The position numbers and the translations under genes are program-made. DNA of 64,000 bases from positions 2,748-66,747 of the forward strand of contig JAYSLY010000014.1 in the NCBI GenBank assembly GCA_043725085.1, written 5' to 3'. This DNA is from a bacterium (GTDB taxonomy: Bacteria; Patescibacteriota; Minisyncoccia; Moranbacterales; UBA2206). The notes beneath the pieces are model-generated. The model saw only the letters and a program-made list of their open reading frames with translations. It was not told the DNA's origin and did not search any database. Below, piece after piece: positions 6,747-53,469 of the stretch (the first letter of the stretch is position 1; every line of letters begins with the position of its first letter).

Positions 6747-6822
6747 GCCATCTTAGCTCAGTTGGTAGAGCGACGGTATCGTAAACCGTAGGTCATCAGT
6801 TCGATCCTGATAGATGGCTCCA
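6747..6822 (+). tRNA. tRNA-Thr (anticodon CGT)
   Basis: A manual cloverleaf gives acceptor GCCATCT/AGATGGC, D arm GCTC..GAGC, anticodon stem ACGGT/ACCGT with loop ATCGTAA, a TΨC loop TTCGATC, and an encoded CCA. Confidence 0.85.
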
Positions 6823-49102: not shown

Positions 49103-50680
49103 TTATATGTTTGTTTTTATTTTTTTATTTTTCACAAAATACACCACACATATTATGATAGCATACCAAACCACCATGCCTTGCCACGAAAGGCCGACCT
49201 CCAGCGCGGCATATTTCAAACTTGCTGCGTAGTTGATGACATCTACCTCATAGCGTAAAGGCAAATAGGTTAGCCAGGAAAAAACAATGGCGAGCGGCCA
49301 AAAAAGAAAACTGATTGCTACCGCCAAAAATCCCAAAAGCATTGTGAGCGGTAAAATTGGCAAAACCAAAACATTCGTCAGCGGAGAGATGAGTGAAAGT
49401 TTTTGAAAATTAAAAAGAATAATCGGCAACACAAAAACTTGCGCGCTCAGTGACATAAACAGAATTTCCGCAATGAAAGAAAAAACGGCCGGATATTTTT
49501 TCAACTTTTCACCAAAATATTTTTCGAACAGCGGATAGAAATAGACAATGCCGATTGTCGCCAGAAATGACAGCTGAAATCCGACGTCATAGCGAAGAAG
49601 GAGCGGATTCCAAAAAAGCATCACGGCGGCGGCAAAAATAATTGCATTTTGGGCATTAGCCAGCCTTCCATTTTTCATTGCATAAAGGAGCAGCGTGCCC
49701 ATCACACCGGCGCGAATGGCTGAAGCGGGAAAACCGGTCATTAAAATAAAAATCCAAATGCCCAAAAGCGCAAACCAAAACGCTTGCCGACGCCAGAGAC
49801 CCAAAAACAATCCCAAGAGCATCAAATATTCCGCCACAATCGTGATGTTATACCCTGACACTGCCACAATATGCGTCATGCCGGTACGTGAAAAATTATC
49901 TTGAATACTTTTAGAAAGCTTATCATCCCCGCCAATAATCAAGCCTTCCAAAAGTCCCGCTTCCGGCGCGGGAATGAGCAATGAAATCTTGGCGCTGAAT
50001 TTGTTTTTCAAACTAATCACTGCGCCATAAAAAATATTTCCCAAATTTTTTCGTCCGCCAGCCGGCGGATTTTCAATTTGCGGTTTTTGGCAAAGATAGA
50101 AAATATCATCTCGCGCCAAATAGGCCACGTAGTCAAAATCCGAGTCTTCTCTGTTTTTTGGTTTGGTTAAGTTGCAAGTCAACTTCAACTCCTCGCCATA
50201 GGCATAACTTTCATAGATACTTTCTTGAATGAGCACGTTGTAGTTTTCACCTTCGGGAGCAAAGATGATTTCTTGCACTTTTTCCTTGATTTTCGGTTCG
50301 CGTGCAATCATCCCTTGTCCGGAAAAATCAATTTCCTCTGGCGCGCTCTCGAATGAATTTATTTTATCGATTTTTTTCTGAGTCAGATGAAAGCCAAAAA
50401 CAAACATAATGAGCGCGCCGCAAATCAGCATCACCATTTTATTTTTATAGAAAACAAAAAGAGCGCTAAGCGTAAAAAGCAAAAGTATATATGAAAATGC
50501 CGTGCCAAAAATAGCGGGATAGAAAAATGAAGCGCAAAAAACTCCAAAAATAAAACTCAAAGAAAACAGCAAAAATATTTTCGCTTTGGTCATTTTTGAC
50601 ATGAGTTTATTATAGCAGAAATTATCCAGACCCCTAAAAACAGCTATACTTGACTTTGCATACCAATGCATCTTATCCAA
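49103..50680 (-). CDS. comEC: ComEC N-terminal OB (DUF4131) + competence membrane domain (5' fragment of a frameshifted comEC)
   Basis: It contains the competence-domain motif (TGMTHIVAVSGYNITIV). It ends ...FVKNKKIKTNI* inside the A-rich run AAAAATAAAAAAATAAAAAC, and a +1-nt change there joins it to the downstream MBL frame. Confidence 0.7.
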   Translation of the reverse strand: MDKMHWYAKSSIAVFRGLDNFCYNKLMSKMTKAKIFLLFSLSFIFGVFCASFFYPAIFGTAFSYILLLFTLSALFVFYKNKMVMLICGALIMFVFGFHLTQKKIDKINSFESAPEEIDFSGQGMIAREPKIKEKVQEIIFAPEGENYNVLIQESIYESYAYGEELKLTCNLTKPKNREDSDFDYVAYLARDDIFYLCQKPQIENPPAGGRKNLGNIFYGAVISLKNKFSAKISLLIPAPEAGLLEGLIIGGDDKLSKSIQDNFSRTGMTHIVAVSGYNITIVAEYLMLLGLFLGLWRRQAFWFALLGIWIFILMTGFPASAIRAGVMGTLLLYAMKNGRLANAQNAIIFAAAVMLFWNPLLLRYDVGFQLSFLATIGIVYFYPLFEKYFGEKLKKYPAVFSFIAEILFMSLSAQVFVLPIILFNFQKLSLISPLTNVLVLPILPLTMLLGFLAVAISFLFWPLAIVFSWLTYLPLRYEVDVINYAASLKYAALEVGLSWQGMVVWYAIIICVVYFVKNKKIKTNI

Positions 50681-51671
50681 AATGATCCGTCTCCTTCAAC
50701 TTCTGCTGCAACTTCTTCCCATTTCCATGTCGCAACATTCCCAAATACGAAGTCAACCTTCCTGGATCGTAATTTCTTCGCATCTTTTTTATCATTCTTC
50801 TTTTGGTACTTGTCCTCAACACCCTGTGATCAGAAAAATTTACCCAACCCAGAAAATCCACACCAGAAGAAAAAGTTTTGATAAAAACTTTACTAGGATG
50901 CAGTTTTAATTTCAGTTTAGTTTCCAAAAAATCGGATATTTCAGGAATTAAACTCTCCAAATGGTTTTTATCTTCTGACAAAATCACAAAATCATCCGCG
51001 TAACGGATATAGTATTTGACTTTCAATTTATGTTTCATAAACTGATCGAATTTGTTCATGTAAATATTGACGAATAATTGCGAAGTTAAATTGCCCAGTG
51101 GCAATCCGACATTCGTCTTTCCTGGAGTTGCAAAACTTTCAATCACATTTTTCAAAAGCCAGATGATGTTTTCGTCCGGAACATGTTCGGCTAAAATGTT
51201 TTTGAGTATTTGATGATCAATATTGGCAAAGAATTTTCTGATGTCGCATTCCAGAATCCAGCAAGTTTTCGTATTATTTTGACTGACTTTCTGAAAATAT
51301 TTTCTAAACTTGTTAATTGCTTTATGTGTGCCTTTATTATTCCGGCAGGAATATGAATCAGCGATAAAAGTCTTGTCGAAAAAGGGATAGAGTTTTCGAT
51401 AGATGGCATGATGAAGGAGTCTGTCTTTAATGCAAGCTTTGTGGATGTCTCTCGGTTTGGGATCGTTGATTTTGAAAGCTTGATAGCTGCCGTGTTTGTA
51501 GGTATGATGAAGAAGCTCGTGGTGCAGTGAAAAGATGTTGTCCATGAGACAAAGAGAAAATTCCTGGACATCATATTTCTTCCTTTTGCCGTTTTGGAAT
51601 TCTTTCCAGGCCAAAAGTAAGTTTTCCAGGCTAATAATATCTTCAAAACTATGAGTCAGTTGAATTTTCAT
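50673..51671 (-). CDS. diversity-generating retroelement (DGR) reverse transcriptase
   Basis: The 332-aa ORF has RT motifs 1-7, with YIRYADDFVIL in motif 5. Motif 4 reads GLPLGNLTSQLFVNIYMN, the DGR-diagnostic (I/L)GNLTSQ form. There is no maturase or endonuclease domain. Confidence 0.85.
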   Translation of the reverse strand: MKIQLTHSFEDIISLENLLLAWKEFQNGKRKKYDVQEFSLCLMDNIFSLHHELLHHTYKHGSYQAFKINDPKPRDIHKACIKDRLLHHAIYRKLYPFFDKTFIADSYSCRNNKGTHKAINKFRKYFQKVSQNNTKTCWILECDIRKFFANIDHQILKNILAEHVPDENIIWLLKNVIESFATPGKTNVGLPLGNLTSQLFVNIYMNKFDQFMKHKLKVKYYIRYADDFVILSEDKNHLESLIPEISDFLETKLKLKLHPSKVFIKTFSSGVDFLGWVNFSDHRVLRTSTKRRMIKKMRRNYDPGRLTSYLGMLRHGNGKKLQQKLKETDHFG

Positions 51672-51744
51672 AGCAAAAATTTTAATCCGTTAACGCCCCC
51701 CCCCAAGACTTCCGCAGGTTTTTGAAAAAGTAAAATCGCTCTAT

Positions 51745-52080
51745 TTGGCTTGGTATGAATATTATCAGATTTTACCAACCACCCATCGATATACTCTGGG
51801 ACAAAAAATCGATAAATACTTTACGGAAATTATTGAATCGATTGCCATTGCTGCTTTTCTGAAACCGGAAGAAAAAATACCGTATGTCCGGTTGGCTATT
51901 CGCAAATCCGATGTTTTGAAAATTTTTCTGAATATTCTTTGGGAAACAAAATCTTTGGATGACAAGAAATATATTTTGCTTTCGGATAAATTAAATTCTG
52001 TCGGTCGCGATCTTGGTGGCTGGAGTGGAAGCCTTACAAAGAAAAACTCTCCCGATTCAAAACAGGGAGAGCGAAAATGA
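51745..52080 (+). CDS. avd: Avd-like accessory variability determinant (four-helix-bundle protein), TTG start
   Basis: The 111-aa ORF is basic and helical, and its C-terminus (VGRDLGGWSGSLTKKN) resembles Bordetella phage Avd (VGRILGSWIARVNRKG). It lies between the RT and TR but on the opposite strand. Confidence 0.55.
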   Translation: MAWYEYYQILPTTHRYTLGQKIDKYFTEIIESIAIAAFLKPEEKIPYVRLAIRKSDVLKIFLNILWETKSLDDKKYILLSDKLNSVGRDLGGWSGSLTKKNSPDSKQGERK

Positions 52081-52089
52081 AAATAGTTT

Positions 52090-52211
52090 CGGGGCGACGA
52101 ACGCAAACCCATCGTCATCGTTCCACCTGTTGTCAGGCCTGTCATACGCAGTGTTCAACCACCGACCATCATCGTTGCGGTTGGCGTTGAGCAGGTTCGG
52201 ATCGCCGTCAG
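52090..52211 (-). repeat. DGR template repeat (TR) including IMH*-like 3' end
   Basis: It aligns to 52577..52699. All 15 mismatches over 101 aligned nt are TR adenines (minus-strand sense) opposite non-A bases in VR. The GC-rich end reads TTTGCGTTCGTCGCCCCG. Confidence 0.85.
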
Positions 52212-52475
52212 TTTTGCGCGATATGCCTTCCTTGCCACTGCCCGTTGAATACTCTCCGGGCTGAATCGAATTCCGCATCTTAAATGCGCTAGCATACCAC
52301 ACCAAGTATCTTCATTTTTTTGAAGTTTCTGCATACGCCACTTTATCCGAAACCGTGATCGCGGATAATCTCGACGTATGGATACTGGATTCGGAAGCGG
52401 GAAACCTACCTACCGGCAGGCAGGCGTGATCGCCCGCATTCTTCCCTACTACCTTTTTTATTTTACCAAATTTAA

Positions 52476-52521
52476 GAGCCTTGTGCGAGAATTCAACACA
52501 AGGCTCCGTTTTTAATTTTTT
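52476..52521. terminator. strong hairpin with T-run between TR and VR (terminator-like, plus-strand sense)
   Basis: A perfect 10-bp stem GAGCCTTGTG...CACAAGGCTC with an 11-nt loop is followed by CGTTTTTAATTTTTT on the plus strand; the minus-strand side is weaker (TTAAATTTGG). Confidence 0.45.
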
Positions 52522-52522
52522 A

Positions 52523-52563
52523 GGACTGAGTTTTTGAGGACTAGTCCTCAGTAGCTGAGTCCT
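52523..52563 (-). promoter_or_regulatory. hairpin/cruciform immediately 3' of VR/IMH (DGR homing-associated structure)
   Basis: A perfect 14-bp palindrome GAGGACTAGTCCTC (52536..52549) overlaps the target stop codon and is nested within AGGACT...AGTCCT arms. Confidence 0.6.
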
Positions 52564-53216
52564 GAGCACTGACTTGCGGGGCGACGAACGCAAAACCCAA
52601 CGTCACCGCACCACCTGTAGTCAGGCCTGTCAAACGCAGAGTCCAACCACCGACCACCATCGCGGCGGTAGGCGCTGAGCAGGCGCGGATCGCCGTCAGA
52701 ATCTTTGATGGGCTCGTGCATTACCACGACCCACCAGAGACCCATCGCTTCGATTTCCTCATCCGCGAATTTCTCCCGGATAAGACAGGCTACTTCGGCA
52801 TTCGGCTTCTCGAGCTTCCGCTCATCGGCTTCGGCGCGAATGTTCTTGGTAATGCGATCGCTATCTTTCCACAGATTGCCCTTGAGGACAATGATGTGGT
52901 AGGACACTCCATTCGTCGGCTTGAAGTCTCCCGACATAAGGACGCTCTTCGCGTAATCACCGACTCTGAAACCCTTCTTCTCGAGTCTTTTGATCCACTC
53001 GAGTCCGGTCGTTCCGTCGGAAGTCATGATACCGAGATCGATCACGCCGTCTTGTTCCTTCCATGAGCGCACGACTTCAGAAACGATCCATTCTTTGGAA
53101 TTGATCCTGCGAACAGCTTCGTTCGCGTCGGCGATTCCCATCTGACTCATGATGGTTTTCACCATCGCATTGAGTTTTCCCGGCATAACTTCCGCAATTG
53201 CAAATCCGTCTGACAT
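52548..53216 (-). CDS. DGR target protein with C-terminal variable region (minimal C-type-lectin-like VR)
   Basis: The 222-aa ORF ends in the VR-encoded tail ...GDPRLLSAYRRDGGRWLDSAFDRPDYRWCGDVGFCVRRP. The TR translation is GDPNLLNANRNDDGRWLNTAYDRPDNRWNDDDGFAFVAP, with AAY(Asn) codons at the variable sites. No signal peptide is evident. Confidence 0.75.
   Translation of the reverse strand: MSDGFAIAEVMPGKLNAMVKTIMSQMGIADANEAVRRINSKEWIVSEVVRSWKEQDGVIDLGIMTSDGTTGLEWIKRLEKKGFRVGDYAKSVLMSGDFKPTNGVSYHIIVLKGNLWKDSDRITKNIRAEADERKLEKPNAEVACLIREKFADEEIEAMGLWWVVVMHEPIKDSDGDPRLLSAYRRDGGRWLDSAFDRPDYRWCGDVGFCVRRPASQCSGLSY
52577..52699 (-). repeat. DGR variable repeat (VR) with IMH at 3' end
   Basis: See the TR entry for the alignment. 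The IMH reads TTTTGCGTTCGTCGCCCCG in minus sense and differs from the TR copy by one T. Confidence 0.85.
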
Positions 53217-53469
53217 AATAACCTCCTTGCGCTAAGTCGCGCAGTTTTATTTTCCTCTTATCCGAGGAAGGAGCCATGTCCACCCATTTGGTCATAGCCA
53301 AGAAATGCCATTCTATGGAATTTTTTGGCTACGACCAATGCAAGTCAATTAAAAAGAGCTTTCCGAAACTGAATAAGTAAGTATACACTAAATCGCTGTT
53401 TTGTCAATGTTTTCACAATTAAATGGCTAGAACAAGCCATTTTTAGAACAATTTAGGTAAATTCTTGCG

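Follow-up and report, generated by a model that had tools for sequence, protein, structure and literature searches.

A Patescibacteria DGR with reversed avd probably produces its template RNA from a minus-strand unit of its own and may be phase-variable through a poly-C tract in avd

How is the template RNA of a DGR produced when avd lies reversed beside the template repeat (TR)? A preliminary description of the 64-kb stretch of DNA analysed here (the window) raised this question on finding avd on the opposite strand from TR, reverse transcriptase (RT) and target gene; it called the architecture atypical and the origin of the TR RNA unclear. Comparison with relatives, drawn from Moranbacteria/Patescibacteria MAGs, indicates that the locus is very likely an ordinary DGR of the CPR/Patescibacteria class, of architecture B3, in which the TR RNA would have its own promoter, leader and terminator and transcription would be divided among three units. 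This reading draws on gene identities, adenine-specific differences between TR and VR, a covarying leader, a conserved promoter and 3′ hairpin with U-run, and conservation of the layout, all of them comparative evidence.

The layout itself is as first described: RT, TR, VR and target gene are on the minus strand, while avd, lying between RT and TR, is plus-strand (Table 1). The avd ORF with the TTG start originally assigned to it (the TTG-ORF) diverges from RT across a 73-nt gap, and its stop codon (52080) lies 6-10 nt from the TR, in agreement with the 10 bp given earlier. The window's 60 non-overlapping ORFs of 80 aa or more are minus-strand without exception (60/60), and as a tRNA-Thr gene (6747..6822) lies on the plus strand, avd is the sole plus-strand CDS of the window, as had been noted, but not its sole plus-strand gene. 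The label "atypical" holds only against the Bordetella prototype. According to Wu et al. (Nucleic Acids Res 2018; PMC5758913), architecture B3 is TR-(avd)-RT with avd reversed and makes up 90% of CPR DGRs; the window, judged by its own coordinates, has avd on the opposite strand between TR and RT, and TR and RT co-directional. RT and avd diverge in nearly all of 80 related genome loci, and wherever a TR/VR pair adjoining avd was detected (62 of these 80 loci and the window) the TR is antisense and ~10 nt past avd, with VR 460-530 nt beyond the TR. Reversed avd is the standard CPR DGR arrangement, catalogued in 2018, and order, orientation and host group of the CPR-set B3 DGRs are those of the window, with no architectural difference. 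That paper, as consulted here, describes no TR RNA promoter, 225-nt leader, terminator or poly-C tract.

Table 1. Features of the DGR locus, in window coordinates.
Feature	Position	Strand	Remarks
DGR reverse transcriptase gene	50673..51671	-	332 aa; PF00078, motifs, PDB relative
Probable true avd 5′ end, MSQLNFHSKNFNPLT	51651..51695	+	21-nt overlap with RT start; not in frame with Avd core in the assembly
-10-like hexamer TAAAAT	51679..51684	-	7 nt before RT ATG; putative leaderless-type geometry
C9 homopolymer (G9 on RT strand)	51696..51704	+	SSR in avd 5′ coding region, 24 nt upstream of RT ATG
Avd core (four-helix bundle) and C-terminal tail	51705..52080	+	PF22296, homologues, predicted fold; TTG-ORF is 51745..52080
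Predicted TR RNA 3′ end: hairpin CUCUCCC/GGGAGAG (52071..52047) and U-run (52046..52038)	52038..52071	-	Antisense to avd codons K-K-N-S-P...G-E
UUUUCAUUUU segment directly 3′ of TR	52074..52083	-	Spans avd stop; complementary to invariant leader motif; tentative long-range helix
Template repeat (TR)	52087..52211	-	125 nt; 87% identity to VR
Structured leader of predicted TR RNA	52212..52456	-	245 nt here, ~225 nt in relatives; includes near-invariant motif AAAAAAUGAAGAUACUUGG (52321..52302)
Putative extended -10 promoter of TR RNA, TGGTAAAAT	52460..52468	-	Just past putative target terminator hairpin; predicted start near 52453
10-bp hairpin, T-rich tails on both strands	52476..52521 (stem-loop 52476..52506)		Putative target-gene terminator, here probably bidirectional
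Inverted repeat, 21-nt arms, no spacer	52522..52563		11 nt beyond VR end; spans target stop codon
DGR target gene	52548..53216	-	222 aa; VR 52574..52699 in C-terminus

The RT ORF matches PF00078 (E=5e-26) and bears the DGR hallmarks LGNLTSQ at residue 192 and YADD at residue 224, which fit the [I/L]GxxxSQ (motif 4) and YxDD of the DGR clade; its nearest solved structure is the Bordetella DGR RT (8ub7_A, E=1e-42). For Avd, the TTG-ORF matches PF22296 (bAvd) with 30.8 bits (E=4e-7), under the 40-bit Pfam cut-off, and its 365 homologues are mostly CPR "four helix bundle" proteins with PF22296, a precomputed match to this family being present in all close ones. Searching PDB sequences with a profile built on the Avd alignment gave no match, so that a fold comparison was needed. 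The AlphaFold (AF2) model (pLDDT 91; helices 8-24, 29-54, 58-84 and 90-117) found in Foldseek 4dwl (TM 0.79/0.91, rmsd 1.5 Å), 2gsc, 2rld and the Avd chains of 8ub7, and the proposed identity is thereby upheld, the protein being a four-helix bundle superposable on the Avd of 4dwl.

The TTG codon at 51745, by contrast, does not hold as the avd N-terminus, since it would cost the protein most of helix 1 (residues 8-24 of the extended translation). The homologues P0001, P0004 and P0032 begin with MxQLxFH...PPP.LP, and the homologous N-terminus in the window runs upstream through the C9 tract, whose length puts the 51651 ATG and the core in different frames. Loss of one C or gain of two at the tract joins the ATG segment to the Avd core in a protein of 141 or 142 aa, and among relatives without a tract an uninterrupted ORF from ATG crosses the avd 5′ position in 10 of 11.

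TR and VR differ by 17 substitutions, all 17 at TR adenines when read on the minus strand (A>T 7, A>G 7, A>C 3), and by one 1-nt indel, a deletion in the TR relative to VR 18-21 nt from the TR 3′ end, which would be detrimental should this stretch be copied into VR. Past the last A-difference the two repeats share TTTGCGTTCGTCGCCCCG, save for the 1-nt indel, and then diverge. The target protein gave no Pfam match and no PDB sequence match. Beyond VR, the inverted repeat 52522..52563 is by analogy a candidate counterpart of the hairpin/cruciform downstream of IMH; similar hairpins beyond VR in relatives have a mean z of -2.2, with z < -2 in 36/63.

The neighbouring stem-loop 52476..52506 had been read as an intrinsic terminator in the plus sense, downstream of avd. 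Its stem is indeed perfect and folds in both senses (dG -17.8 plus, -20.2 minus; z -3.0 and -5.5, respectively), and the plus-sense tail, CGTTTTTAATTTTTT, has a good T-run (CGUUUUUAAUUUUUU); the minus-sense tail, UUAAAUUUGG, is weaker in the window, with a clear U-run in most relatives. Terminating avd is, however, not its primary role: in relatives the hairpin lies 20-95 nt beyond the target stop with the T-run mostly on the minus-sense side, after the target gene, and a plus-sense T-run is found only in the window and a few closer relatives (L005, L012, L010, L018 and L056). Across the family the hairpin would be mainly the target-gene terminator, and in the window it is probably bidirectional. 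It is absent from a generic terminator scan, which was limited to loops of 8 nt, its own loop having 11 nt.

For the TR RNA, whose origin had seemed unclear, the comparative model offers a promoter conserved on the minus strand, a leader that covaries and a 3′ end resembling a terminator. Of 161 unique loci, 154 place a TAnnnT hexamer 2-14 nt ahead of the leader motif; the distance is 6-7 nt in 123 of these, and 106 have TG at the extended -10 position. A generic sigma-70 scan of the window passed over this promoter because a -35 element is lacking. For the leader, RNAalifold on 56 sequences gave 56 pairs, 45 of them with compensatory changes; 96.7% of cells were paired, against 37-49% with partners slid and with 0/500 shuffles reaching the observed value, and compensatory cells numbered 500 against 146 in shuffles. 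Both the conserved G-U pairs and the alifold energy (-98.7 versus -70.5) point to the minus strand as the leader strand. The greater length of the window's leader is due to a 19-nt hairpin insert at ~52408..52426. No family of Rfam 15 matched the leader at E<=5, a search with 51500..53400 returning noise only, and the RT-1 to RT-19 motifs (Weinberg et al., 2017) gave no match.

On the other side of the TR, a hairpin followed by a T-run occurs in the minus sense in 121/132 relatives (shuffled mean 7.7) and in the plus sense in none, with 93 different stem sequences and inner pairs that covary. The segment just 3′ of the TR may in addition pair with the near-invariant leader motif: a G->A change in the leader is matched by C->U in the partner in 5/5 leaders, and L060 pairs A->G with U->C; support for this helix is limited to ~7 bp, and U>C, a second G>A and A>C variants are uncompensated. 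The TR RNA would then be a discrete minus-strand ncRNA of ~415 nt, overlapping avd only at its 3′ end (~45 nt), so that the antisense relation to avd pointed out earlier does exist but is confined to about the last 45 nt of the gene. We infer the promoter and terminator from consensus; the positions of the RNA ends, recognition of these RNA elements by RT and Avd, and any current activity are likewise inferred.

Two other accounts of transcription over the TR can be weighed. According to one, which we regard as a tentative, minority possibility, the avd mRNA continues through the antisense of TR and leader to the plus-sense terminator 52476..52521, is the dominant RNA over the TR and regulates or interferes with the TR RNA through ~440 nt of complementarity. 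The plus-sense tail of that hairpin in the window, and the plus-sense T-runs in the five closer relatives named above, are consistent with this, and as 0/132 loci have a plus-sense terminator-like hairpin at the avd stop, avd transcription probably does enter the TR region. Most relatives, however, lack a plus-sense T-run after the hairpin, which argues against a conserved class feature, and the conserved structure belongs to the minus strand; avd read-through, moreover, leaves production of the A-bearing template RNA unexplained. It is compatible with a separate minus-strand TR RNA and can coexist with it as a regulatory layer.

The other account, which appears unlikely, has a single long minus-strand transcript, TR-(antisense avd)-RT, serving as both template and RT mRNA, with the hairpin and U-run after the TR acting only as an Avd-binding stem-loop. 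Co-transcription of TR and RT in canonical DGRs, described in PMC5758913, would fit, as would the Avd-binding stem-loop that Handa et al. (bioRxiv 10.1101/2023.10.23.563531) place immediately after the TR, and termination at intrinsic terminators can be incomplete. Hairpin plus U-run in the minus sense only, at the 121 of 132 loci, is nevertheless a terminator signature; Wu et al. do not make TR/RT co-transcription a requirement; a read-through RNA would include ~380 nt of antisense avd; and RT has its own -10-like hexamer, the arrangement of a G-run, then exactly TAnnnT, 7 nt and the RT ATG recurring in at least 34 relatives besides the window. The 3′ hairpin could still be an Avd-binding stem-loop instead of, or besides, a terminator, with the RNA then reaching further into antisense avd. 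Separately, the poly-G run was considered as a Shine-Dalgarno sequence for RT and rejected, the spacing of 13-25 nt being too long at most loci.

With a discrete TR RNA as the preferred reading, the locus would work as follows. The target-gene transcript (minus) would stop at the hairpin 52476..52506; a second unit would start from the promoter at 52468..52460 and yield the ~415-nt minus-strand ncRNA, consisting of a ~245-nt leader, the 125-nt TR and a hairpin with U-run antisense to the avd end; and RT (minus) and avd (plus) would be transcribed divergently, their 5′ ends overlapping. Bound to the TR RNA, RT and Avd would make an adenine-mutagenised cDNA of the TR; this cDNA would replace VR, with the inverted repeat 52522..52563 possibly marking the target. 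As avd is out of frame at C9 here, Avd would be made only after a change in tract length or by slippage.

The DGR of Bordetella phage BPP-1 (mtd-avd-TR-brt; Handa et al., 2018, PMC6182149; bioRxiv 10.1101/2023.10.23.563531) shares with the window an IGxxxSQ-type RT, the pentameric-type four-helix Avd fold, A-specific transfer from TR to VR, a stem-loop directly downstream of the TR, pairing of the TR flanks (tentative in the window) and an inverted repeat after VR. BPP-1 has avd upstream of the TR and in the same direction; its essential structured RNA (140-nt Sp) follows the TR, and 20 nt upstream suffice; in the window, by contrast, avd is antisense, only ~45-50 nt separate TR and U-run, and a large structured domain (~225 nt) lies upstream. 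This topology suggests a rearranged DGR RNA, whose ~225-nt leader may, by analogy, hold the RT- and Avd-binding functions located downstream of the TR in Bordetella. Stem-loops just downstream of the TR and duplexes between upstream and downstream segments have been described across DGR taxa, CPR among them (Handa et al., bioRxiv 10.1101/2023.10.23.563531). If correct, our reading provides a testable template-RNA model (promoter, 225-nt leader, TR, terminator antisense in avd) for the DGR class most numerous on Earth, with a topology unlike that of Bordetella, the sole DGR RNA studied biochemically.

Within the 64 kb, no C or G run reaches 8 nt apart from the C9 tract that separates the avd ATG from the core. 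Tracts of C6-16, or (CA)n, occupy this site of avd in 132/143 relatives, (CA)n replacing the C tract in L146 and L152. The frame set by the tract is random, with the gene ON in 44/132 relatives and OFF in 88, 87 of these 88 being rescued by ±1 C. Tract length also differs among contigs with identical flanks (C9 in seven, C10 in two and C11 in one; C8/C9/C9; C12/C10/C10; C8/C11). The window's C9 is OFF, and C8 or C11 would be ON. An independent Logan contig, identical over 3602 nt, carries the same C9; being the only other copy of the exact locus, it gives no information on tract variation in the species, and scanning metagenomes for the flanks specific to the window on either side of the C-run (AATCCGTTAACG N5-18 AAGACTTCCGCAGG) gave no match. 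With avd frameshifted in both assemblies, this copy may currently be inactive.

A decaying element, in which avd is a pseudogene (frameshifted at C9 and lacking a usable start ahead of helix 1), the TR has lost 1 nt and the DGR is dead, is a further reading, to which we attach very little probability. The out-of-frame ATG 51651, a TTG-ORF without most of helix 1, the same C9 in the independent Logan assembly and the TR/VR indel all agree with it. But two-thirds of the 132 relatives are likewise out of frame and yet have intact, well-conserved Avd cores, almost all of them one C away from restoration, while RT, leader, promoter and TR of the window are intact, and the TR indel falls within a region that is uncopied in the Bordetella element, whose cDNA starts at TR G117 of 134.

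A repeat within the reading frame whose length variation among close relatives switches the frame, as found here for avd, is one mark of SSR contingency genes, and the length-varying tract suggests phase-variable DGR activity. That DGRs of this CPR clade are phase-variable through an SSR toggling the avd frame, and possibly the geometry of the RT promoter, with the covarying TR leader as a second new element, is a proposal to which we give an even chance. Tract variation might also stem from homopolymer assembly error, or Avd might be made through transcriptional or translational slippage. The likeness to SSR contingency loci of Neisseria, Campylobacter, Haemophilus and Helicobacter (PMC5084427, PMC11868660) comprises a 6-16-nt G/C homopolymer early in the coding region, random frames, restoration of ON by ±1 unit, variable length in identical sequences and dinucleotide replacement. 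Those loci are known mostly for surface-structure or restriction-modification genes of host-associated pathogens, whereas the avd tract would control an auxiliary protein of a mutagenic CPR retroelement and adjoins the -10 region of a divergent RT. A literature search that did not extend to the principal paper on CPR DGRs (Paul et al., Nat Microbiol 2017) found no link between DGRs and SSR phase variation.

Were avd phase-variable, full-length Avd and target diversification would be available in only about one-third of cells or lineages at a time, a stochastic on/off switch layered over targeted hypermutation. Such switching by a conserved, length-polymorphic repeat would bear on how the cost of a mutator is limited and on the apparent inactivity of many metagenomic DGR loci; Avd would also be systematically truncated by gene callers in such genomes, as with the TTG start here.

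Two other explanations of the tract were considered and set aside. The first puts the avd start (TTG/ATG) directly beyond the tract, on the "L" codon of the conserved LP motif, and would turn the tract into 5′-UTR; this codon is CTT in the window and start-like in 44/123 scorable tract-bearing loci, and the ON fraction is alike with a start-like LP codon (17/44) and without one (25/79). With start-like codons in a minority and equal ON fractions, such a start explains some lineages only, for example that of P0045, which has ATG there. The second, selection for poly-Pro, was dropped, as the tracts do not come in multiples of 3 and can be replaced by (CA)n.

The preliminary description placed the reverse transcriptase (RT) gene, template repeat (TR) and target on the minus strand and avd on the plus strand. 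The coordinates confirm this. TR and the variable repeat (VR) differ, besides one 1-nt indel, by 17 substitutions, all 17 at TR adenines in the minus-strand reading. The layout itself, taken then to be atypical, is architecture B3 of Wu et al. 2018 (PMC5758913), TR-(avd)-RT, in which parentheses denote the reverse strand, and recurs in relatives. Among 80 genomic loci encoding relatives of the window Avd, all from MAGs labelled mostly as Moranbacteria, other Parcubacteria or Patescibacteria, RT lies immediately upstream of avd and divergent from it in essentially every case. A TR/VR pair adjoining avd was found in 62 of the 80, and in all of these, as in the window, TR begins ~10 nt after the avd stop codon, its adenine strand is opposite to avd, and VR is 460-530 nt beyond TR. 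The window DGR (diversity-generating retroelement) is hence typical of a very large class that was already catalogued, its architecture being the known CPR norm.

Features of the DGR locus, in window coordinates
Feature	Position	Strand	Remarks
RT gene	50673..51671	minus	332 aa; PF00078 E=5e-26
C9 homopolymer	51696..51704	plus	interrupts avd reading frame
Avd ORF as first called	51745..52080	plus	TTG start; PF22296 (bAvd-like) E=4e-7, below Pfam's cut-off
Predicted TR RNA 3' end	hairpin 52071..52047, U-run 52046..52038	minus	within avd 3' codons
TR	52087..52211	minus	125 nt
Predicted TR RNA promoter (extended -10)	52468..52460	minus	TGGTAAAAT; predicted start near 52453
Inverted repeat	52522..52563		21-nt arms, no spacer, 81% complementary; starts 11 nt past VR, spans target stop
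Target gene	52548..53216	minus	222-aa ORF, VR at 3' end
VR	52574..52699	minus	126 nt, in target ORF

The window RT has the DGR hallmarks LGNLTSQ and YADD, and its nearest solved structure is the Bordetella DGR RT (8ub7_A, E=1e-42). The target protein gave no Pfam or PDB sequence match, and no second VR was found elsewhere within the 64-kb window; judged by eye, the VR terminus ...GGRWLDSAFDRPDYRWCGDVGFCVRR recalls C-type-lectin-fold DGR targets. All 60 of the 60 large non-overlapping ORFs are on the minus strand, an extreme strand bias, and the only plus-strand genes detected were avd and a tRNA-Thr (CGT; 6747..6822), so that avd is indeed the sole plus-strand CDS.

We consider it likely that the DGR is organized in three units: a target gene whose transcript would end at a terminator, bidirectional in the window; a separate, structured TR RNA, made from the minus strand between a promoter and a terminator of its own; and RT and avd as divergent genes. 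Alignment of the TR-to-VR interval of the relatives brought out four conserved features. A G+C-rich hairpin occurs 20-95 nt beyond the target stop codon and, because most loci have its T-run on the minus-sense side, it is predicted to be the terminator of the target gene. Its window counterpart is the 10-bp hairpin 52476..52506, whose existence was confirmed and which folds stably in either sense. Its proposed role as a plus-sense terminator finds support in so far as the window has a plus-sense T-run, but this additional run is shared with only a few of its closer relatives; in all of these loci, the window included, the hairpin probably acts in both directions.

Next along the minus strand, immediately past this hairpin, comes an extended -10 element, TGnTAnnnT. 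TAnnnT occurs just upstream of the conserved start of the leader, the structured RNA region 5' of TR, in 154 of 161 unique loci, with a spacing of 6-7 nt in 123 and with TG in 106. Leader length is markedly constant among relatives (mode 225-228 nt), and the 245 nt of the window leader (52212..52456) are due to a 19-nt hairpin insert. RNAalifold, applied to 56 leader sequences, predicted 56 pairs, and compensatory double changes occur in 45 of these; 96.7% of cells were paired, compared to 37-49% with partners slid by 1-3 columns, and double-change cells numbered 500 versus 146 in shuffles, none of 500 shuffles reaching the observed values. Conserved G-U pairs (for example 29-57, 130-160 and 249-366) and an alifold energy of -98.7 kcal/mol, against -70.5 kcal/mol for the reverse complement, assign the leader RNA to the minus strand. 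It matched no Rfam 15 family at E<=5, and is an undescribed RNA. The window insert (~52408..52426) is a ~19-nt G+C-rich mini-hairpin (CCTGCCTGCC/GGTAGGTAGG-like) in a leader loop; similar ones are found in other leader loops of the related loci L045, L065, L023, L018 and L059, as if one small module had been inserted repeatedly.

On the 3' side of TR (minus sense), within the last avd codons, a hairpin followed by a U-run was found in 121 of 132 unique loci, whereas shuffles would give 7.7 and the plus sense gave 0. Its 93 different stem sequences indicate that the stem is kept by compensation. These conserved elements supply an origin for the TR RNA, which had seemed unclear: we infer a self-contained gene of ~415 nt, with predicted ends, convergent with avd and overlapping it by only ~45 nt. 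AAAUGAA, the leader motif with the strongest conservation (within 52302..52321), may moreover form 7 bp with UUCAUUU directly 3' of TR (52074..52083). G>A in the leader is matched by C>U in the partner in all five cases, and A>G by U>C in one locus, while other leader variants lack compensation, and we propose this pairing tentatively. Handa et al. (bioRxiv 10.1101/2023.10.23.563531) predicted stem-loops just 3' of TR and duplexes that pair the two flanks of TR with each other in 207 of 278 Avd-containing DGRs, CPR being among the taxa with such elements; our 3'-end and pairing predictions are consistent with theirs, to which the large upstream domain would be an addition.

The Avd-like identity of the plus-strand ORF was borne out. 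Besides its Pfam match, it has 365 homologues, of which almost all come from CPR/Patescibacteria MAGs and bear PF22296, and its AlphaFold model (alignment of 42 sequences) is a four-helix bundle (pLDDT 91) whose top structural matches are 2gsc, Avd (4dwl; TM 0.79/0.91, rmsd 1.5 Å), 2rld and the Avd chains of the DGR RNP 8ub7. The C-terminal tail, K-K/Q-N-S-P...G-E, is nearly invariant yet of low confidence in the model; its codons (52038..52080) are the antisense of the TR RNA hairpin and U-run, and its conservation is therefore probably imposed by RNA and not by protein. The TTG start, also picked by gene callers, has to be abandoned, as it would remove most of helix 1. Homologues have an upstream extension, M(S/N)QLNFH...PPP(R/G)LP, and the homologous peptide is encoded in the window from ATG 51651, with 21 nt of overlap with the RT start (51671, other strand), but out of frame with the Avd core because of the C9 run. 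In many relatives gene callers truncate Avd for the same reason.

Nowhere else in the 64 kb does a run of C or G reach 8 nt. Were this C9 a C8 or a C11, avd would be one continuous ORF (141 or 142 aa). Across the 80 genome loci and 120 metagenome loci retrieved by the leader motif, a C6-C16 tract (mode 10) occupies the equivalent site in 132 unique loci. The frame is random among them: an in-frame start is present upstream of the tract in 44 of these (33%), and a change of one C in either direction restores the frame in 87 of the other 88. Of 11 loci lacking the tract, 10 have an ORF that starts with ATG and runs unbroken through the site (Fisher p=2.6e-4). In two related loci, L146 and L152, (CA)9-14 replaces the tract at the identical site, which rules out poly-proline codons or poly-G as the conserved feature, this being, therefore, a slippery repeat. 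Tract length varies between contigs that have identical flanks but come from different samples (C9x7/C10x2/C11x1, C8/C9/C9, C12/C10/C10, and C8 vs C11), one further set being uniform (C10x3); homopolymer assembly error is an alternative source of these differences. Prevalence, frame, repeat replacement and polymorphism are, at the sequence level, signatures of simple-sequence repeat (SSR) contingency loci, and we give about even chances to the C run being a phase-variation switch that would render avd, and hence the DGR, phase-variable. Alternatively, transcriptional or translational slippage could make the avd frame irrelevant, or avd could in some lineages start just past the tract, where 44 of 123 scored loci have a start-like codon, but the window has CTT. 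A literature search that did not cover Paul et al. 2017, the main CPR DGR paper, found no papers linking DGRs with SSR phase variation.

With a self-contained TR RNA gene, RT would need its own promoter. On its strand the window has TAAAAT, 7 nt and then ATG (51684..51669), and 34 relatives have exactly a G-run, TAnnnT, 7 nt and ATG, with 13 nt from G-run to ATG, an arrangement suggestive of a leaderless RT mRNA and a promoter abutting the variable tract.

The TR/VR indel is TTT in TR (52105..52107) versus TTTT in VR (52592..52595; minus strand), TR being one T shorter (GGGTTTGCG vs GGGTTTTGCG) at 18-21 nt from its 3' end. If copied, this indel would shift the reading frame of the target, and its place is thus probably past the point where cDNA begins; since the final 17 nt of TR escape copying in the Bordetella element, it is probably a tolerated difference of the IMH/IMH* type. 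Past VR, the inverted repeat that spans the target stop has comparable hairpins in relatives (mean z -2.2; 36 of 63 below -2); it is a possible counterpart of the inverted repeat/cruciform downstream of IMH, and a better candidate for it than the hairpin at 52476.
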